Of a stretch of DNA of 64,000 nucleotides, positions 45,759 through 52,124 are shown in pieces. The stretch lies in IMG/VR virus record IMGVR_UViG_3300045988_156524; one strand, 5' to 3'. How positions within the stretch are numbered: the first letter of the stretch is position 1; each line of letters opens with the position of its first letter. Source of the stretch: a virus (taxonomy: Duplodnaviria > Heunggongvirae > Uroviricota > Caudoviricetes). The notes below the pieces were generated by a model. The model worked only from the letters and a program-made list of their open reading frames with translations. It had not been told where the DNA came from and made no database searches. The position numbers were made by a program, and so were the translations under genes.

Positions 45759-46484
45759 CTACTGAATACGCTCAAACTCGATTACCCAAACCCAGGGATT
45801 AGCGCTCCAGCTTTCTTCGCCGTAGATGGATTCCCACAGGCGCTGGAACGCAACCTTGGCCATTGCGAAATCCCCCTTGGGAGTAAGGAATGTTCCCGGG
45901 TGATCAGGAAGCAAACTTCCAGCAGGCGGAACACCCTCATCCCTTGCATCGCATTCGCTGATATCGTTCAACCGCTCAACGCGCACGTTGGTAATTTCCA
46001 CCAGGATGCGTGATGCCCATCGCGGCATGTGAATTGATGGACGCCACCCACCATCAAACTTTTCATTCACAGTGTGAGGTTTCCAGTCGGCATCATCGGG
46101 TATCGACCATAAACCGTAATCACCAGGCTTTTGCTCACAACTGGCCCGATAAATCCTTGCTGCGTTCTTCTCATCGCCACGACAAAGGTTGTCGTTCCAG
46201 TCCACACTGCAACCATCTTCATTGCCTAATATCGCCCATGTTTCACGAACCCAAATTCGATCGCCGACGATACCAAAGGGGCAATTGAAAACACTGCTTA
46301 CACCATCAGCCCCGTACCACTGAAAACCTGCACCAATTTTTCTAACCATCACTGGTGCTTCTGGACCAACTTCCGCAGGCTGATTTTTCATTATCCGCCG
46401 CGTCTGCGTTTTCCTTCCTTCGAGGATGGCCCGGACCATCTCATCGTTAAAAATCATGCCGCGCTCTTTCACTTCGCCTTTCAT
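45759..46484 (-). CDS. Hypothetical protein (241 aa)
   Basis: ATG with GGGGG RBS directly after the 28-aa peptide gene. Confidence 0.45.
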   Translation of the reverse strand: MKGEVKERGMIFNDEMVRAILEGRKTQTRRIMKNQPAEVGPEAPVMVRKIGAGFQWYGADGVSSVFNCPFGIVGDRIWVRETWAILGNEDGCSVDWNDNLCRGDEKNAARIYRASCEQKPGDYGLWSIPDDADWKPHTVNEKFDGGWRPSIHMPRWASRILVEITNVRVERLNDISECDARDEGVPPAGSLLPDHPGTFLTPKGDFAMAKVAFQRLWESIYGEESWSANPWVWVIEFERIQ

Positions 46485-46493
46485 GCATCCCCC

Positions 46494-46580
46494 TTACCCA
46501 TGTGCGACGATGCCGCCAAAAGTGATAGAGAACAGCCAGAAATAGATCGCGGCCATAATGATTTTGAATGCCGTGTTCAT
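46494..46580 (-). CDS. Small hydrophobic peptide, 28 aa (MNTAFKIIMAAIYFWLFSITFGGIVAHG)
   Basis: ATG with AGGAGCTG RBS; sits between a C1 operator/hairpin and the next gene; below track cut-off. Confidence 0.4.
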   Translation of the reverse strand: MNTAFKIIMAAIYFWLFSITFGGIVAHG

Positions 46581-46662
46581 ATTTTCAGCTCCTGTGATTG
46601 ATTGGATACATGCCGCGCCTTGCGGCATGTTTTTATTTTCACTTTCTCTGTTTTAAAAATCA

Positions 46663-46679
46663 AGATTTATTAGAGCAAT
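46663..46679 (-). promoter_or_regulatory. C1 operator
   Basis: Reverse complement ATTGCTCTAATAAATCT. Confidence 0.55.
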
Positions 46680-47185
46680 TATTGTTGGTGGAGAAGCGCG
46701 TTTTCATACTCCCTGACCATTAACGTAAGTACGCCGTGACTCCTGAAAACACGCGCCACTTCAATCTTATCTTCCAGCGCGAACGCAATTTTACTTAGAC
46801 CAATTTTCTTCAGGAGATCAATCTTTGCTGGACCGTCATTTCTGTCATCGGTGGCAGGACGCATAGATAGCAAAGGCTCAGCCCCATTTGTTACGTGCTT
46901 ACGCAACCAGGCTCGTGTTTTATCCCTGGCTATCTCACAGCGCCCGGTTACAAACCAGAGGGTGTAAATGCCGGACAACTGGCGCACCATATCAATAACT
47001 GGAGTGATGGGAGCATCAGTGTCACAGGCAAGGTTAAACTCGTTCCAGTGCTCTGTTAATGCACCTTTGCCAGGTGGTGGAAGTAAATGCAGCCTGTCTT
47101 CCGTTGCCTCTGATATCGTCCCATCAATATCTACTATGACGATGTACGGACGTTCCTGGTGTGCGTGTTTATTGAAAATACTCAA
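46679..47185 (-). CDS. HAD-superfamily phosphatase-like protein (168 aa)
   Basis: N-terminal IVIVDIDGTIS (DxDGT) motif; TTG start after GAGGAGGG. Confidence 0.55.
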   Translation of the reverse strand: MSIFNKHAHQERPYIVIVDIDGTISEATEDRLHLLPPPGKGALTEHWNEFNLACDTDAPITPVIDMVRQLSGIYTLWFVTGRCEIARDKTRAWLRKHVTNGAEPLLSMRPATDDRNDGPAKIDLLKKIGLSKIAFALEDKIEVARVFRSHGVLTLMVREYENALLHQQ

Positions 47186-47257
47186 ATGCCCTCCTCATTG
47201 GACGAAAAAAATGCTGGTGGGCGCACTCCACCAGCATTAAATGTGACACTGTAACTA

Positions 47258-48520
47258 TCAGCGAACGTAAATAGTGCCGCCGTTCTCTTTTTCCCATGCA
47301 TCGCTACGTGCATAGCAAACATCGAGAAGTCTTCTTGCCGCAGTTTCCTCTAAACCCAATTCAACAACCAACTGCTCATGACGGCGGGTAACTACATCAA
47401 ATAGGCTATGCAGCCCTTTATTGGCCAGTTCATCAATGAATTCCGGTTCGAACGGCAGCTCTACCTCTGCCAACATAACCTCTTGCGCCCACTCAACTCG
47501 ACGGACCAGTTCCGGGCGGCGGCTTTCCATCTCTTTACAGATCAATTCATGGAAGAACTCTACCCAACCTTCCGGCTGGAACTCGCGGAAAATGGCCAAC
47601 GGCTGGAAGTTTGGCATCAACCATTCGTTGATCCGGATATCAATGGCATAGCCCATGTCGCAGCAGAACTGATAAGCAAAGTCCAGCTTAGAAACGATAT
47701 AAGGACGCTCGTTATTGAACTCTTTAGGCGATGAGATCCCATAAGCCAGGAGGCGCGGGAAGAAGGAGATTTGCCCTAACGTCGGATGAAGTTTGCTTGC
47801 AGGGAAACGGCGCTCAGTAATGCCATACATTTCCTTCTTGAGCGTCGCAAATTTGGCATTCTCATTAACCAGCGCGGTAACCTCTGCTTTTTTATTAGCA
47901 AATGCCACGCGCGCTTCGCTTGCATCTTTAATAGTTTTTTTGAGCTGTTGGTTAAGGTCGGCGACCTGCTTACGCAGTTCCTGTCGCTCGCTTTTAGCTT
48001 TGTTATAGCGTTTCTCAAGGTTAAAAGGATCAAGTTTCATGATCTCTTTATATTGAGATTTTAGCGTTGAAATCTGTGAGTTCCGCAGTTCAACCATCGC
48101 GGTCATTTCATTGAGTTTTGTTTCCAGCTCAATGCTTATACGTTCGGCATTATCAGCACGCTGGTTGGCGTCATGCGTCGCATCGTCGATCGCGTCCTGT
48201 TGCTGGCGTTTCAAATGTTCAATTTGCAGCTGAAGCTCTTCAATTTCTTTACCCTTCAGACCGAGATCCAACTGCATATTTTCAGCTGCATCTACCAGGG
48301 AGTTATGGCTATCAGCTTCTGCGTTATAAACATCAATAAGCTGTGCGTGAAGCATCTCCGCTGACTGAACCGCATTATCAAAAAAACGTGCTGTGAGGTC
48401 ATCACAACTAACGCGGCGTTGCGCGGCCCGGATGTTCTGGATAATGGCCGGGATACCGGCATTCAGGACATCAGGGATAGATACATTTTCGATTGATTGG
48501 TTTTGTGCTGAAGTGCTCAT
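47258..48520 (-). CDS. Hypothetical coiled-coil protein (420 aa)
   Basis: ATG ORF; long heptad-like central region. Confidence 0.5.
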   Translation of the reverse strand: MSTSAQNQSIENVSIPDVLNAGIPAIIQNIRAAQRRVSCDDLTARFFDNAVQSAEMLHAQLIDVYNAEADSHNSLVDAAENMQLDLGLKGKEIEELQLQIEHLKRQQQDAIDDATHDANQRADNAERISIELETKLNEMTAMVELRNSQISTLKSQYKEIMKLDPFNLEKRYNKAKSERQELRKQVADLNQQLKKTIKDASEARVAFANKKAEVTALVNENAKFATLKKEMYGITERRFPASKLHPTLGQISFFPRLLAYGISSPKEFNNERPYIVSKLDFAYQFCCDMGYAIDIRINEWLMPNFQPLAIFREFQPEGWVEFFHELICKEMESRRPELVRRVEWAQEVMLAEVELPFEPEFIDELANKGLHSLFDVVTRRHEQLVVELGLEETAARRLLDVCYARSDAWEKENGGTIYVR

Positions 48521-48521
48521 T

Positions 48522-48740
48522 TCAAAGTTCCGTATTAGCTTGTGCTTCGGTCATTTTTCCTAAGTATGAAGGAGGAAGGACTACGCAATTTGTATCCAGT
48601 CCCTCACCTATGGCAGCCTGTAAAATTCTGGCTAAGGTGAGTCTCTTGTTGCGATACCTGGTGATGACATGCCTGATACCGCCGGTCGGCGTAACAAAGG
48701 CGATCAGCCAGTAGTGATATTTCCGTCGGAATGGCCACAT
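48522..48740 (-). CDS. Small hypothetical protein (72 aa)
   Basis: ORF downstream of a divergent operator pair. Confidence 0.35.
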   Translation of the reverse strand: MWPFRRKYHYWLIAFVTPTGGIRHVITRYRNKRLTLARILQAAIGEGLDTNCVVLPPSYLGKMTEAQANTEL

Positions 48741-48754
48741 AGTGCACCTTGTAG

Positions 48755-48771
48755 ATTGCTCTAATAAAAAA
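48755..48771 (+). promoter_or_regulatory. C1 operator
   Basis: ATTGCTCTAATAAAAAA. Confidence 0.55.
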
Positions 48772-48803
48772 CGTGATGAGTGTACATCACGTTTTAAAAA
48801 TAT

Positions 48804-48820
48804 GGAATTATTAGAGCAAT
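48804..48820 (-). promoter_or_regulatory. C1 operator, inverted relative to 48755-48771
   Basis: Reverse complement ATTGCTCTAATAATTCC. Confidence 0.55.
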
Positions 48821-48821
48821 A

Positions 48822-49523
48822 TTATTCTGATTCTCGCTCAAAAAATGAGCTGATAAGGGGAAGCCAATCCTCTGACACTTCGCGAGGTCGCGGTTTGCCG
48901 TGGAAAAAGATTATTCGGCAGTCTTTTGGTAATGCCCCATTCCCCCTGGAGTAACGCGCGCTCGCATATTTTGAACCAGGTTCCACAACATCGGCCTTGT
49001 AACTTACAAACCATCCTGGATACAGATCCTGAAATGCTGGTGTATCATCGCCCATAACCTTTCGTAAGAACCCCTGGTCACCCCAACACTCAGTAGTGAC
49101 ACAACGAGAAATCCAACCTTCCGGATCTTGCCAGAATGAACTCCAGATATGCGCTTTAACACTATTTGGTATCCACAGGGCACCGCTGCCACGATATTGT
49201 GGATGGTAAAAATCCCTAAGCATGGTGAAGCTGGTTGGTGGATGCTCTAGGATTGGGCGTATATCACCGGCAATAACCGTGTCCAAATCCAGATAGAACA
49301 GATCATCGGTTATATCCGGTCGGAACAACTCGATTTTCGCCCACCAGCCACGGCACTTTTGCCACTGGTTGATCAATGGGACAACTTTGACGCCAGGTAC
49401 ATGTAAACGCTTCAGGTCTGTCAGGCAAATAATTTCATAGCCTTTTGGCAGTTGATTAACCAGCCACTGCACATCGGAAGCGTTATAGTCACCACCAGAG
49501 CGAAAAACTAAAGCAATCTTCAT
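48822..49523 (-). CDS. Hypothetical protein with DxD-type motif, possible nucleotide-sugar transferase (233 aa)
   Basis: YLDLDTV motif; ORF in operon. Confidence 0.4.
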
Positions 49524-50194
49524 GCTGCACCATCACCTTTCACTTTCATCAATGTCAGGTTTCCGCAAAATACGGCACCAGTGTCGATATACTGCTGATT
49601 CCAGAATGTCTTCGGGCTTTTCACCGGAGTGTGACCAAAGATAAAACGATCTGCGCCCGAAATTTCGCCACCAATATCATCCATCGAATCACTGATACGC
49701 TCGCGCGCCCAGACAACGTTGAAAAGCGGTACCTCCTTACCGAATTGGTATTCATTATCCGGATAGTCGGCATGGGCTATAACGATAGTTTCTTGCCCGG
49801 TGTTCAACTCAATGATATAGGGCAGACGCTTTACCAGCTCCACCAGCGCCCAGGCTAATATTTCCTGATCAGTGTCCAGCATGAAGAACCATTGTCCGCC
49901 ATTCATTAGCCAGTTATTCACGTTGCCATCTGGACTTAACGCATCAATCATCAGCCGCTCATGGTTCCCCATCACTGCCCTGAACCAGGGCATCTGCAAT
50001 AGTTCCAGACATTCGACATTTTCAGTACCGCGATCGATAAGGTCGCCGACCGATATCAGTAAATCCTGCGCCGGGTCAAAATCCACACGATGGAGTTCGG
50101 ACATCAGTCTGGTGTAGCAACCATGCAGATCACCAACAACCCAGACATTCCTGTATTTGGTACCGTCGATACGGTGATAAATTGTGGGTGCCAT
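49520..50194 (-). CDS. ppp: Ser/Thr protein phosphatase, lambda-PPase-like (224 aa from ATG 50194)
   Basis: GDLHG, GDLIDRG, GNHE metallophosphatase motifs; collinear with lambda phosphatase as I recall it. Confidence 0.75.
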
Positions 50195-50820
50195 CATGTA
50201 TTCTTCAGCCATTCTTTAAGAGTCATCTGCGGAATACCTCCCATTTTCCCGCATGAAACAACGTCAATCCGTTCACGCGCAGACTGGAATAACAAAGGCA
50301 GGTGACTTAGATTTTTTGGCGTGCCGCCGGAGTGAACGCGTGGTTCTTGTGTAGCGTCAACGCCCACCAGGGCGACATGTTTGAATCCGATATGGAAAGC
50401 CAGGTTCAGAGCACCATATGCACTATTGCCGCTGGCAATTTCATTCTCATCTTCGCAAAGTCCGAAATGTGCGGACCAGCGCCACGCCCACCACTCGGGA
50501 GAATTCGTATTTTTTGGCTCCATGCCACGTTCAGCCACACGACGGAAGCACAGAACGCCGTCTCTGACTTCACGTTCTTTAACATCGGGTAGTGCCATGC
50601 AATAACAAACACCACGGCGACGGCGGCCACGACCAACGCGCCGCATATTGTCTGGCGATGGATCAAGTGTGAAAAAATAAGAAGCGCGGTTCAGCCAGTC
50701 GATGGCCCCATTGACCGCTATAATCGGCACTCCGCGCGGCGCAACAAAGTTTGCGGCGCTTGGGCCACTGCCGACGATAATAACGCGATCACTGCCTCTA
50801 AATTTATTCTTGGGAAACAT
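50194..50820 (-). CDS. Maf/DUF115-like putative glycosyltransferase, paralog 2 (208 aa)
   Basis: [10 protein letters not shown] ... IIAVNGA motifs; overlaps upstream paralog by about 100 nt. Confidence 0.4.
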
Positions 50821-51380
50821 TGAATTGCACTGCTCCTACTTGCATTCAAAATATGTAAATCTGCGTGTTTTTTGCGGGTATCCAGGAACTGCTGTTGCCA
50901 TTTTGAAATAGACACCTGCGTTGGATTCCGTAGGGCTTGAGGGTGCGCGCCATGCCAATGAAGGCCGTTTTGCAGAGAACAGTCATAGCCGACTAATACC
51001 ACTACTTCAGCCCCTGATTCAGCAGCCAGACTGATAGCCTGCGCGCCGCTATTTACCCCTTCCGCCGGTCCACAATATCGCCTGTACTCCAACGAAAATG
51101 ATTTCGCCGCCGCCAGGTTGGCTGTCACTTTGCGGAATCTCCCTCCCGGTATGGTGGATCCGTATTGCTTCCACCATGACAAATCACCGGCGTATAAGGC
51201 ATAAATGTCATCGAACATCTGCCAGGAATTGTTAACCGCGATGATTGAACAGCCAGTTTTTTCTATAGCAGCACAGTCCTCACGAGTGAGTGACGGACCG
51301 CTACCGACACAAAAAACAGTCCTAGTCGCCCTGGGTGGTATGTTCATTCTCAGCTGCAAATTCAGCCTCCAGGCGAGCAT
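50718..51380 (-). CDS. Maf/DUF115-like putative glycosyltransferase, paralog 1 (220 aa)
   Basis: VFCVGSGPSL ... IIAVNNS motifs. Confidence 0.4.
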   Translation of the reverse strand: MLAWRLNLQLRMNIPPRATRTVFCVGSGPSLTREDCAAIEKTGCSIIAVNNSWQMFDDIYALYAGDLSWWKQYGSTIPGGRFRKVTANLAAAKSFSLEYRRYCGPAEGVNSGAQAISLAAESGAEVVVLVGYDCSLQNGLHWHGAHPQALRNPTQVSISKWQQQFLDTRKKHADLHILNASRSSAIQCFPRINLEAVIALLSSAVAQAPQTLLRRAECRL

Positions 51381-51543
51381 TCATTTCAGCGATTACAGGG
51401 TCCACTACAGCATCTGTTTCCTGTTCATTACGCGGCATGACCGATGCCAGCGACTCATAATTAACCTTGGATGACACGATTATTCTCCCGATGTTAAAGT
51501 GCACTACCACAAAGAGCGTAAATGCACTAATTAATTTATTATT

Positions 51544-52122
51544 TTAAGCAGCATACAACCACTTGTCGCCGTTCAATACATGCTCAATAGCCTCACCCTT
51601 TTTAAGGCTTATGTATTCCAGGATGGCGGTTATCGCTTGTTCTGCACCATACGCAAGAACGACGTAGTAACCTTCCTCTCTAAGCCTGCGCATCCAGGCG
51701 ATCTGCTCTTTCGTCGGGGCTTTACCATTTGGTTCTTTAAGCTCAATTCGCATGCCGTGATAAATACCGCATGCTTTATCGAGACTCATGTCCGGATAAC
51801 CTTTTTTCTGCCCTTCAGCCTTCATTTTCCCGGCGGTTGCTTTTGAACGTTTCCCTCCGTTAGGCGTTGCATGCAACAGCTCATAGATGTCAGGGTGCTT
51901 GCGTTCGAAGTAATCAAAAATGAAAACCTGCTCGAAGTGCTCGCAATTTCCGTCGCGCAGGTCTGGGTTCTTTGCAAGTGCTGCAAGTGCCTTCGCATGT
52001 GGAGAAACTTCTTTTACCGGCGCAAGCGATAAGAATGGATCCTTTTTGGTTTTTGGCCTGGACCGCCCCTTATTTCGACGCTCACTAAAAGCCTGAAACT
52101 CTTCCTCAGTAAAGCGCAACAT
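51544..52122 (-). CDS. VRR-NUC domain nuclease-like protein (192 aa)
   Basis: KKGYPDMSL...GMRIELKEPNG...Q pattern typical of VRR-NUC. Confidence 0.55.
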   Translation of the reverse strand: MLRFTEEEFQAFSERRNKGRSRPKTKKDPFLSLAPVKEVSPHAKALAALAKNPDLRDGNCEHFEQVFIFDYFERKHPDIYELLHATPNGGKRSKATAGKMKAEGQKKGYPDMSLDKACGIYHGMRIELKEPNGKAPTKEQIAWMRRLREEGYYVVLAYGAEQAITAILEYISLKKGEAIEHVLNGDKWLYAA

Positions 52123-52124
52123 AA

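Follow-up and report, generated by a model that had tools for sequence, protein, structure and literature searches.

A conserved set of phage genes (pmgO, pmgP and pmgQ) with predicted glycosyltransferase folds in a P1-type phage-plasmid, and its possible role in virion glycosylation

Gene content and regulation of the locus

The window analysed here, a stretch of 64,000 nucleotides of viral DNA, belongs to a P1-type phage-plasmid, with ~98.5-99.1% identity to P1 across the gene region (98.5% for positions 45789-58289). The open reading frames listed in a preliminary description of this DNA were all recovered on the minus strand with unchanged coordinates, and the cluster maps to pmgQ, ppp, pmgP and pmgO of P1; dbn lies a few genes away on the same strand (Table 1). 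These long-annotated P1 names had been missed in that description; pmgO, pmgP, ppp and pmgQ are already known, uncharacterised P1 genes. Compared with the P1 proteins, PmgO is identical, PmgP has 2 changed residues and PmgQ has 5.

RefSeq already labels pmgQ as "glycosyltransferase" and pmgO as "alpha-2,3-sialyltransferase". The latter label is probably misleading: E. coli K-12, the laboratory host of P1, makes no CMP-sialic acid, so the actual reaction there is unlikely to be the one named. Our literature search turned up no study of what pmgO, pmgP or pmgQ do, nor any on phage Maf-like enzymes. Many truncated gene calls that lack the GSGPS motif are present in the databases, a recurrent mis-annotation, and the misspelling "norphogenetic protein" has now spread through them.

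The consensus of the C1 repressor operator is matched 15 times in the window, against 0.37 matches expected. The late promoter LPpmgL differs from that of P1 by 1 mismatch, within the -10 box, and probably also drives the genes downstream of pmgL-pmgM. Since a late promoter and a C1 operator lie upstream in P1, pmgO, pmgP and pmgQ should act in lytic growth and not in the lysogen.

Table 1. Genes and regulatory features of the pmg region (positions in the 64,000-nt window)
Feature	Position	Strand	Description
C1 operators Op86b, Op86a and promoter PpmgR	48755..48820	.	Downstream module boundary; P1 annotation; identical to P1
pmgQ	48822..49523	-	233 aa; GT-A-type DxD glycosyltransferase (predicted), GT8-like; LDLDT = D79-x-D81
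ppp	49520..50212	-	230 aa; lambda/NinI-type Ser/Thr protein phosphatase between pmgP and pmgQ
pmgP	50194..50820	-	208 aa; Maf/CstII/MptE-fold (PF01973-type); most conserved member of the module; PIIAVNG
pmgO/pmgP dual-coding overlap	50718..50820	-	103 nt; 3' end of pmgO and 5' end of pmgP
A_AAT_TTA heptamer, pmgO frame	50799..50805	-	Candidate slippery site, rejected
pmgP Shine-Dalgarno AGGAG	50833..50837	-	Within pmgO codons Ser-Arg(AGG)-Ser; 12 nt 5' of ATG; from sequence
pmgO	50718..51380	-	220 aa; pmgP paralog, same fold; VFCVGSGPS, SIIAVNN
pmgN	51322..51477	-	51-aa ORF heading the operon; overlaps the annotated pmgO start; P1 annotation; protein identical to P1
C1 repressor operator Oppp (Op83)	51521..51537	+	Upstream of pmgN-O-P-ppp-Q; P1 annotation; 1 mismatch to P1; fits the C1 consensus
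Late promoter LPpmgL (-10, -22 boxes)	52459..52477	-	Heads pmgL-pmgM; P1 annotation
dbn	57315..58289	-	324 aa; possible GT-B (GT4-like) glycosyltransferase; candidate fourth enzyme

PmgO and PmgP are paralogs with a Maf-type fold

Pairwise BLASTP relates PmgO to PmgP at E=0.003 only, but profile-profile comparison of the two families with hhalign, run with a natural O+P fusion taken out, aligned 164 columns with Prob 97.8% and E=1e-12. By this measure of their sequences the two are true paralogs, far beyond chance, as the preliminary description had proposed for the adjacent pair. Of the two motifs that it named, IIAVN is present in both proteins, and (V/F)xVGSGPS is matched exactly by PmgO (FCVGSGPS) but not by PmgP; because PmgP reads IIVGSGPS, only VGSGPS and IIAVN are strictly common. 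All 24 PmgO homologs keep G28, P29 and S30, and the corresponding motif residues G19, P20 and S21 are conserved at a level of at least 90% across 42 PmgP homologs. Both proteins have the N-terminal beta-strand and nucleotide-binding G-x-G-P-S loop of the PF01973 type, and invariant histidines are found at H141, H143 and H146 of PmgO and at H173 of PmgP.

The AF2 model of PmgO has a pLDDT of 86, falling to 59-74 in the tail, which is clade-specific (residues ~203 to 220). In Foldseek searches this model matched Maf (5mu5, prob 1.0, TM 0.57) and CstII (1ro7, prob 1.0, TM 0.50); the models of PmgO and PmgP both match the Maf flagellin glycosyltransferase, which is the best structural match for each, Campylobacter CstI/II and also the archaeal MptE pyrophosphokinase, and this three-dimensional fold is common to all of these enzymes. 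The likeness to Maf/DUF115-type proteins that had been suggested from motifs is borne out by the structural models, while the P1 proteins themselves score below the PF01973 gathering threshold of 34.6 (PmgO 23.4 bits, PmgP 21.0 bits). A PmgP-family member (P0259) scores 44.1 bits with PF01973, and many homologs have precomputed matches to it. PmgO also matches phrog_4603 (E=4.4e-74). Single-sequence searches of the PDB with PmgO and with PmgP gave noise only.

PmgQ, Ppp and Dbn

As a single sequence PmgQ has no Pfam match at E<=1, GT8 (PF01501) included, and its PDB search gave a weak GT8 hint. The profile of its family matches GT8 enzymes of known structure (6mw5, E=1.6e-6; 5gvv, E=2.5e-3) in alignments that span the DxD region, and D79-L-D81 aligns with the DAD of 6mw5 and the DSD of 5gvv. 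Across 33 homologs D79, D81, H208, G209, P211 and P213 do not vary, nor does the C-terminal H-G-x-P-R-P motif, and PmgQ matches phrog_1962 "glycosyltransferase" (E=2.5e-128). These family-profile matches support the reading of the DxD protein as a glycosyltransferase and contradict the outcome considered beforehand, in which none of the three proteins would have a glycosyltransferase fold.

The neighbouring phosphatase of the preliminary description is Ppp (Metallophos, 59.3 bits; NinI-like phrog_246, E=5e-113), whose translation contains the lambda-type PPP phosphatase motifs GDLHG, GDLIDRG and GNHE. None of the non-P1 loci has a ppp gene between P and Q, and several diverged P1-like loci lack it there too; ppp is not part of the conserved module and occurs only in a sub-clade of P1.

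The more distant GT-B-like protein of the preliminary description exists as an open reading frame, namely dbn, but its GT-B signal is weak: Glycos_transf_1 is matched with E=2.2e-5 and a score of 24.5 bits, short of the 26.4 required, and this match is confined to residues 221-307 at the C-terminal end; the PDB sequence search gave no match. The P1 annotation of dbn carries the note "possible glycosyltransferase", and its RCS47 homolog is called "glycosyltransferase family 4 protein". Homologs of dbn lie at most ~4 kb from pmgP/pmgQ homologs in L004 and L099, and within the same locus in L125.

The overlap between pmgO and pmgP

The overlap of about 100 nt reported between the two paralogs is real and measures 103 nt; relative to pmgO, the reading frame of pmgP is -1. 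The codons of the conserved GSGPS of PmgP (50772-50758) fall within it, and database gene calls that avoid the overlap (e.g. P0095, starting MPIIAVN, and P0003, starting MFDDIY) lose family-invariant motifs. In relatives the overlap is shorter: 7 nt in L096 and L100, ~13 nt in L095, ~40 nt in L088 (as read by eye from the junction) and 49 nt in L087. The length in P1 reflects the loss of a stop codon in the P1 clade, since the TAG stop of L087 reads TCG in P1. The Shine-Dalgarno AGGAG is kept in L087, and L088 has GGAGA.

It had been asked whether this overlap hides a programmed -1 ribosomal frameshift, by which P1 would make a PmgO-PmgP fusion protein. The relative frame of pmgP is the appropriate one, two heptamers of the form X_XXY_YYZ lie in the overlap (T_TTC_CCA, 50817-50811, and A_AAT_TTA, Table 1), and an in-frame O+P fusion occurs naturally in another phage (P0051). 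However, A_AAT_TTA is missing in the 72%-identical L087 and in all other relatives, and the conserved codons for C-F-P in PmgO and M-F-P in PmgP account for the survival of T_TTC_CCA. A slip at either heptamer would remove the conserved C-terminal LE helix of PmgO, which the natural fusion keeps, and the RNA downstream of the heptamer is no more structured than its shuffles (z=+0.41). Moreover, pmgP has its own AGGAG and ATG, the overlap of distant relatives is just 7-13 nt, and by our estimate ~0.13 such heptamers are expected by chance per 34 codons. Taken together, these observations make a programmed frameshift extremely improbable.

Conservation, fusions and genomic context of the module

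The PmgP family comprises 620 clusters at 50% identity (E<=1e-3). A scan of viral contigs with the PmgP alignment returned near-identical P1 copies only, and a second alignment was led by distant members. Among the 31 non-P1 loci, with genes counted from unfiltered ORFs, O, P and Q occur together in 22, P and Q in 7, and O and P in 2, both of which end at a contig edge; P and Q are thus found together in 29/31. Natural fusions join O+P (P0051), P+Q (P0220, P0285) and Q+P (P0305), and others include a methyltransferase (Q+P+methyltransferase in P0271, methyltransferase+P in P0306). Methyltransferases of the FkbM type or of class I lie within or adjoin the module in relatives, and in L003 an extra GT-A-like ORF follows it.

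Families of portal proteins, major head proteins and head proteases prevail among the three ORFs upstream of the module, and those of head-tail adaptor, head closure and Neck1 proteins among the ORFs downstream. In L095, L110, L129, L137 and L124 the module directly follows the major capsid gene, the first large gene on its upstream side. This synteny is not uniform. Indeed, the module of a Sinomicrobium locus (L101) lies among replication and nucleotide metabolism genes (MazG, RNR, DNA polymerase), that of L003, L004 and L099 lies near lysis genes, and the single upstream ORF of L109 that was annotated individually is a DNA methyltransferase. The named hosts are all Gram-negative (Enterobacterales, Pseudomonas, Ochrobactrum, Brevundimonas, Sinomicrobium, Longimicrobiales). 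The co-occurrence of P/Q and of O/P/Q, the fusions and the frequent setting among head genes are new here.

Possible function of the module

Because it often adjoins head genes, the module may decorate the virus particle with sugars. We tentatively favour the view that pmgO, pmgP and pmgQ form a conserved phage glycosylation module, active in the lytic cycle and with a virion protein as the most likely acceptor, a proposal that we rate as slightly likelier to fail than to hold. PmgO and PmgP would be paralogous single-domain enzymes of ~200 aa with the nucleotide-sugar transferase fold of the Maf/CstII type, and PmgQ a GT8-like DxD enzyme; the three would probably form one complex, with PmgP and PmgQ as its core and PmgO as an accessory paralog, that builds a short glycan from host nucleotide sugars. 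The donor of PmgQ may be a UDP-hexose and that of PmgO/PmgP a CMP-activated ulosonic acid, of which CMP-Kdo is the only one available in E. coli K-12. SAM methyltransferases are added in many relatives, and in P1 the GT4-like Dbn may belong to the pathway too. The named top matches are enzymes of protein O-glycans: Maf modifies flagellin, 6mw5 modifies Skp1 and the substrate of GlyE is the PsrP adhesin. The acceptor would probably be a head protein, by analogy with the mycobacteriophages, for which extensive virion glycosylation has been reported (Freeman et al. 2023, as cited in PMC12582341). Several points count against this proposal. In published screens, P1 still formed plaques when pmgO, pmgP, pmgQ, ppp or dbn was deleted in frame or knocked down by CRISPRi, and virion glycosylation goes unmentioned in the paper on the P1 virion proteome. 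The sub-threshold PF01973 scores of the P1 proteins, the lack of a Pfam GT8 match for PmgQ and the uneven synteny also weigh against it.

The main rival explanation, which we consider unlikely although far from negligible, is that the module modifies an envelope glycan of the host, likeliest the LPS core that serves as the P1 receptor; the addition of Kdo or of a hexose would mask the receptor, which could reduce superinfection or the loss of progeny on cell debris. Bacterial GT8 enzymes are typically transferases of the LPS or LOS core, and in a comparison with seven Waa proteins of K-12, WaaJ (hhalign Prob 37%) and WaaO gave the best scores with the profile of PmgQ, and WaaZ, if weakly, with those of PmgO and PmgP. 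The O+P fusion has a faint precomputed match to Pfam WaaZ_KDO_III and matches the NCBIfam WaaZ model with E=2.9e-4, every named host is Gram-negative, and several loci adjoin lysis genes, a typical position for morons. The links to WaaZ are, however, far below threshold (NCBIfam 11.9 bits for PmgP and 20.3 for the O+P fusion against a cutoff of 200; hhalign Prob 8-14% with K-12 WaaZ), and we know of no LPS conversion by P1. With a C1 operator and a late promoter in P1, the operon should moreover be silent in lysogens, where receptor conversion would be most useful; LPS made late in the lytic cycle presumably cannot replace that already on the surface, and the position that the module has in many phages, between capsid and connector genes, agrees better with a function in the virion and joint expression.

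The shared fold also admits another chemistry, in which PmgO and PmgP, like MptE or thiamin pyrophosphokinase, would catalyse the transfer of pyrophosphate or of a nucleotidyl group, with a sugar or small molecule as acceptor, and PmgQ and the methyltransferases would process the product, e.g. in a pathway for a metabolite or against host defence. In favour of this, members match a Pfam family that carries the MptE name, and the module of L101 is set among nucleotide-metabolism genes. We nevertheless judge this improbable: the best structural match of both paralogs is the glycosyltransferase Maf, the PmgO model matches CstII with full Foldseek probability, and two local motifs align with the GNGPS and ITSG...LSGID of CstII, an alignment that is not significant by sequence (E ~0.8). 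The obligatory partner is, furthermore, a DxD GT-A enzyme, even fused to PmgP, and the co-occurring FkbM-type methyltransferases and extra GT-like genes are the typical make-up of a glycan pathway. Still less probable is a glycosylation of phage DNA against restriction in the manner of the T-even phages, a target suggested in the preliminary description. The replication or nucleotide-metabolism block of L101, a single locus, and the DNA methyltransferase ORF upstream in L109 would suit it; most loci, however, are head-gene blocks, and no base-hypermodification gene was recognised among the neighbours of the module. P1 DNA is not known to carry hydroxymethylated or other glycosylatable bases, and the DNA glucosyltransferases that we know of have GT-B or other folds and not that of Maf/CstII.

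The proposal of virion glycosylation can be stated in a bolder form, which we regard as doubtful, namely that P1 and hundreds of other phages of Gram-negative bacteria might coat their virion proteins, probably of the capsid, with a short, Kdo-containing and often methylated glycan made by a hitherto unrecognised three-enzyme complex of PmgO/PmgP with PmgQ. As far as we know, virion glycosylation has been established among tailed phages only for mycobacteriophages; if the proposal is true, it extends to the classic coliphage P1, and phage stability, immune recognition in therapy or adsorption could be affected. P1 is among the phages most used in genetics, and this "putative morphogenetic" block has had no assigned role. 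A tightly linked and often fused set of enzymes, frequently lying among head genes, turns a vague annotation into a testable hypothesis, and pmg deletion mutants have already been made (Gonzales et al. 2022).

Comparison with known systems

Maf proteins (PF01973/DUF115, 5mu5) have ~600 aa and carry further domains on either side of the catalytic core, whereas PmgO and PmgP, at ~200 aa, consist of the catalytic domain alone and occur as two paralogs accompanied by a GT8-like enzyme. The sequence similarity of PmgO and PmgP to CstI/CstII (CAZy GT42; 1ro7, 2p56) is not significant, and the family profiles place them outside GT42 by sequence (E=0.79-0.82 with PDB CstII, E=1.4 with Cst-I). WaaZ, the transferase of Kdo III in the LPS inner core (TIGR04437 / PF27901), has a similar layout (VIIFLSGPTS...IIAVNGS...SGLD) and uses CMP-Kdo, a donor universal in Gram-negative hosts; membership of the WaaZ family was considered for PmgP and for the O+P fusion and was rejected. 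The MptE 6-hydroxymethylpterin and thiamin pyrophosphokinases (8sd5, 2omk) catalyse ATP-dependent pyrophosphoryl transfer and have neither a GT-A partner nor a phage context. With GT8 enzymes (Gat1/AgtA 6mw5, GlyE 5gvv, WaaJ/WaaO, LgtC) the alignment of the PmgQ profile extends over ~150 residues and takes in both the DxD and a His/Pro motif at the C-terminal end; PmgQ is shorter (~230 aa) and has no match to the GT8 family of Pfam. The C-terminal motif of GT8 is H-x5-K-P-W, and that of PmgQ is 2-3 residues shorter.

As regards phage systems, glycosyltransferases of mycobacteriophages are described as acting in the lytic cycle, as expected for the pmg enzymes, and decorating capsid and tail proteins (Freeman et al. 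2023, cited in PMC12582341; PMC11256854). There the glycosylation has been demonstrated by experiment and the hosts are Actinobacteria, whereas for the pmg module we infer it. The Gtr or O-antigen modules of seroconverting prophages resemble pmg in that they are carried by phages, modify glycans, as proposed here for pmg, and are not needed for growth. The Gtr proteins reside in the membrane, are made in the lysogen and act in the periplasm; in contrast, PmgO, PmgP and PmgQ are encoded behind a C1 operator and a late promoter.

Gene identity and organisation

The genes that the preliminary description had read as a glycosyltransferase-like cluster beside a phosphatase, four in all, were recovered from a six-frame ORF list as closely packed minus-strand genes, in a stretch 99.1% identical to phage P1 and 99.9% identical to P1-type plasmids (megablast). 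Gene names were transferred from the curated P1 record. Upstream of pmgO lie pmgN, pmgM (encoding a VRR-NUC protein) and pmgL, and downstream of pmgQ lie pmgR and pmgS. Compared with the P1 proteins, PmgO is identical, PmgP has 2 differing residues and PmgQ has 5. The RefSeq re-annotation labels pmgQ "glycosyltransferase" and pmgO "alpha-2,3-sialyltransferase", and the original P1 record has dbn as "possible glycosyltransferase"; the cluster was therefore already known at annotation level and, these being old, annotated P1 genes, the finding itself is not new. A literature search found no experimental work on the pmgO/pmgP/ppp/pmgQ cluster.

Features of the window discussed in the text (positions in the window)
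Feature	Position	Strand	Remark	Source
pmgQ	48822-49523	-		P1 record
ppp	49520-50212	-		P1 record
pmgP	50194-50820	-		P1 record
pmgO	50718-51380	-		P1 record
dbn	57315-58289		ORF first described as GT-B-like	P1 record
pmgN	51322-51477
LPpmgL -10 box	52459-52464		late promoter
241-aa ORF	45759-46484		phrog_874, weak ASCH-like N-terminus
dbn-ban insertion	58290-58577		288 nt, relative to P1
Insertion ORF	58286-58591		101 aa, TTG start

The pmgM note of the 2004 P1 record is the origin of the misspelling "norphogenetic", and the product name "norphogenetic protein" is now carried by hundreds of E. coli, Salmonella, Pantoea, Citrobacter and Ochrobactrum entries, which are homologs of PmgM, PmgO and PmgP. 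Colinearity between the window and P1 begins only at 45789, within P1 pmgT, so that the 241-aa ORF differs from P1 PmgT at one end. Between dbn and ban, the insertion replaces the first 8 P1 dbn codons, hence a dbn product of 324 aa in the window versus 332 aa in P1. At the search threshold the insert had no match among phage records; it occurs in 52 plasmid records at 95-100% identity, 47 of them at 99% or more.

A published CRISPRi study shows that none of the five genes (pmgO, pmgP, pmgQ, ppp, dbn) is needed for plaque formation, and its table refers to reference 73 of that paper for their non-essentiality (PMC10695390); in-frame deletion strains exist for each (PMC9024508 supplement). By contrast, pmgN was scored essential by CRISPRi (EOP 1.4e-2; PMC10695390), although the same table lists it as non-essential by its reference 73, an in-frame deletion strain is available (PMC9024508 supplement) and all genes downstream of it through pmgQ are non-essential; a polar effect on pmgR or on regional transcription could account for this discrepancy.

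Paralogy and folds of the products

Both PmgO and PmgP carry VGSGPS and IIAVN; the longer motif initially proposed, (V/F)xVGSGPS, is exact in PmgO and approximate in PmgP. Their pairwise BLASTP match is marginal (E=0.003), but profiles of the two families, made from 23 PmgO and 42 PmgP homologs, can be aligned from end to end (Prob 97.8%, E=1e-12), which establishes that these adjacent genes are paralogs, as had been suggested. The DxD protein beside them is PmgQ (D79-x-D81, invariant), and the phosphatase is Ppp, a standard lambda/NinI-type metallophosphatase by domain and family matches.

AlphaFold2 models computed from family alignments were confident (pLDDT 86 for PmgO, 95 for PmgP). Foldseek against the PDB matched PmgO to the Maf glycosyltransferase 5mu5 (prob 1.0, TM 0.57) and to CstII 1ro7 (prob 1.0, TM 0.50), the other matches being generic Rossmann folds at TM 0.2-0.3; on these models and matches, PmgO and PmgP are predicted to adopt the PF01973-type fold. 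Pfam scores of the P1 proteins for PF01973 fall under the gathering threshold, which is passed by one family member (P0259), and many homologs have precomputed PF01973 matches. The PmgQ family profile matches two solved GT8 enzymes (E=1.6e-6 and 2.5e-3) in an alignment spanning the DxD core and a C-terminal His/Pro motif. For the ORF thought to be GT-B-like, the ORF stands as dbn, and its match to the GT-B C-terminal domain is sub-threshold.

Two PmgP homologs (P0332 and P0342) are extended at the C-terminus by a domain of about 200 aa that has no Pfam match and bears the motifs LVLGxA...VVAAxxxG...WVTLHPE...GSSGLFAV...LGF...VLCGxPxD; by this motif pattern the domain resembles one more PF01973-like paralog, a highly divergent one.

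The pmgO/pmgP overlap

The paralogs' overlap, estimated earlier at about 100 nt, measures 103 nt, and pmgP is read in the -1 frame relative to pmgO. The overlap represents genuine dual coding, since the invariant GSGPS codons of PmgP fall within it, and database gene calls that dodge it (P0095, P0003) are without the invariant motifs. These calls, a PmgO starting at MFDDIY (P0003, 173 member sequences) and a PmgP starting at MPIIAVN (P0095, 373 members), are N-terminally truncated and lack GSGPS, apparently because gene callers avoid the overlap. A further cluster of 48 members (P0002) is a frameshifted PmgO variant ending in the pmgP-frame peptide TRRFTYFECK.

When junctions were compared, the two genes overlapped by 7 nt in the Commensalibacter and Brevundimonas loci and by about 13 nt in that of Zhongshania. 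Chimaeribacter (L088) shows about 40 nt, as read from its junction, a Pantoea P1-like element 49 nt and P1 itself 103 nt. Throughout the P1-like clade, the conserved Cys-Phe-Pro codons of pmgO contain the pmgP ATG. The extra length in P1 results from loss of the pmgO TAG stop (GTA GCC in the related locus L087, GTC GGC in P1), a change that also turned VASGPS of PmgP into VGSGPS; the resulting 17-residue PmgO tail is non-conserved and modelled with low confidence.

The programmed frameshift that had been suggested did not hold up. The A_AAT_TTA heptamer is non-conserved, and the RNA downstream of it is no more structured than shuffled sequences (z=+0.41). The pmgP gene is served by a separate AGGAG, formed by the pmgO Ser-Arg(AGG)-Ser codons, and a slip at the heptamer would delete the conserved C-terminal helix of PmgO, which is retained in a natural fusion. 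We therefore conclude that this is an ordinary gene overlap and not recoding; the two genes are probably translationally coupled.

A conserved, frequently fused module

Loci containing PmgP were gathered from GTDB species genomes and IMG/VR, and all their ORFs were scanned with custom HMMs. Among 31 non-P1 loci, 22 have pmgO, pmgP and pmgQ and 7 have pmgP and pmgQ; pmgQ is absent from two, both of which end at a contig edge. Named hosts are all Gram-negative: Enterobacterales, Zhongshania, Methylophilaceae, Commensalibacter, Brevundimonas, Sinomicrobium (Bacteroidota) and Longimicrobiales (Gemmatimonadota). An exhaustive profile search (E<=1e-3) yielded 620 clusters at 50% identity.

Natural fusions connect each pair of genes: PmgO+PmgP with a PmgQ gene directly after (P0051), PmgP+PmgQ (P0220, P0285), PmgQ+PmgP (P0305), PmgQ+PmgP+SAM methyltransferase (P0271) and methyltransferase+PmgP (P0306). 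Judging from gene content and fusions, the three genes would form one functional unit. Class-I or FkbM-type methyltransferases lie within or adjoin the module in about 10 of 27 loci. As ppp separates pmgP from pmgQ in some P1-like elements and nowhere else, it is to be seen as inserted DNA rather than as part of the module. In Serratia (L004) and Buttiauxella (L099), dbn homologs lie within about 4 kb of pmgP or pmgQ homologs, and a diverged P1-like element (L125) has one in the same locus. The Serratia locus, from an S. plymuthica chromosome, is a degraded prophage region (L004 590-17785); its dbn homolog, its pmgP and pmgQ genes and two separate copies of pmgO are dispersed across 17 kb, with lipase, lipoxygenase, Big_1 and fimbrial genes between them.

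Genomic neighbourhood and expression control

The Zhongshania prophage (L095) reads terminase, portal, protease, major head protein, then pmgO-pmgP-methyltransferase-pmgQ, followed by head-tail adaptor, neck, tail tube and tape measure. Across 27 diverse loci, portal, major head protein and head protease are the commonest families among the three upstream ORFs, and head-tail adaptor, head closure and Neck1 among the downstream ORFs. In five loci (L095, L110, L129, L137, L124) the closest large gene upstream encodes a phrog_10 major head protein; in others that place is taken by a portal, a MuF-like protein, a protease or a terminase. Exceptions are Sinomicrobium L101, with the module in a replication block, L003, L004 and L099, with modules near lysis genes, and L109, whose single individually annotated upstream ORF is a DNA methyltransferase.

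The P1 module genes lie downstream of the late promoter LPpmgL, behind Op83, an operator of the C1 repressor, so that expression is expected during lytic growth and not in the lysogen. The window retains both elements, with a single mismatch that falls in the -10 box (plus strand AATATT in P1, AATAAT in the window). The window's transcribed-strand hexamer is thus ATTATT, losing the A at position 2, which might weaken late transcription of the operon in this variant.

Proposed function

The preliminary description was correct in its observations, and its interpretation is supported, the frameshift excepted. We tentatively propose, as the best-supported reading, that the module encodes an enzyme complex which glycosylates virion proteins, probably those of the head, during the lytic cycle. 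The donor would be a UDP-hexose for PmgQ and a CMP-ulosonic acid for PmgO and PmgP. To our knowledge, CMP-Kdo is the sole possible CMP-ulosonic acid donor in E. coli K-12, and this donor fits the exclusively Gram-negative host range. The PF01973-type fold is common to CMP-ulosonic-acid transferases and pyrophosphokinases, so PmgO and PmgP might instead perform non-glycosyl pyrophosphokinase chemistry. This we regard as improbable: a set made up of two PF01973 enzymes and a GT-A DxD enzyme, joined in some loci by methyltransferases and additional GT-like genes, looks like a small glycan-assembly pathway, a composition that argues for sugar transferases rather than kinases.

The main rival concerns the target. 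The LPS core is the P1 receptor, and the family profiles show weak affinity to WaaZ (PmgO and PmgP) and to WaaJ/WaaO (PmgQ), as would suit a module that modifies it; the placement among head genes and the C1 and late control of the P1 genes speak against this, and we consider it rather unlikely. Glycosylation of DNA appears very improbable.

New here are the recognition of PmgP, earlier listed as of "unknown function", as a Maf-fold paralog of PmgO, of pmgO, pmgP and pmgQ as a widespread, frequently fused module with ppp as an interloper, and of a recurrent home among head genes, which leads to a cheaply testable hypothesis of virion glycosylation for P1 and many phages of Gram-negative hosts. 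The virion-protein reading draws on this synteny, on the closest solved relatives and on a phage precedent. These relatives are protein-directed: Maf acts on flagellin, Gat1 on Skp1 and GlyE on a serine-rich adhesin. Extensive glycosylation of mycobacteriophage virions is reported by Freeman et al. 2023, as cited in PMC12582341.
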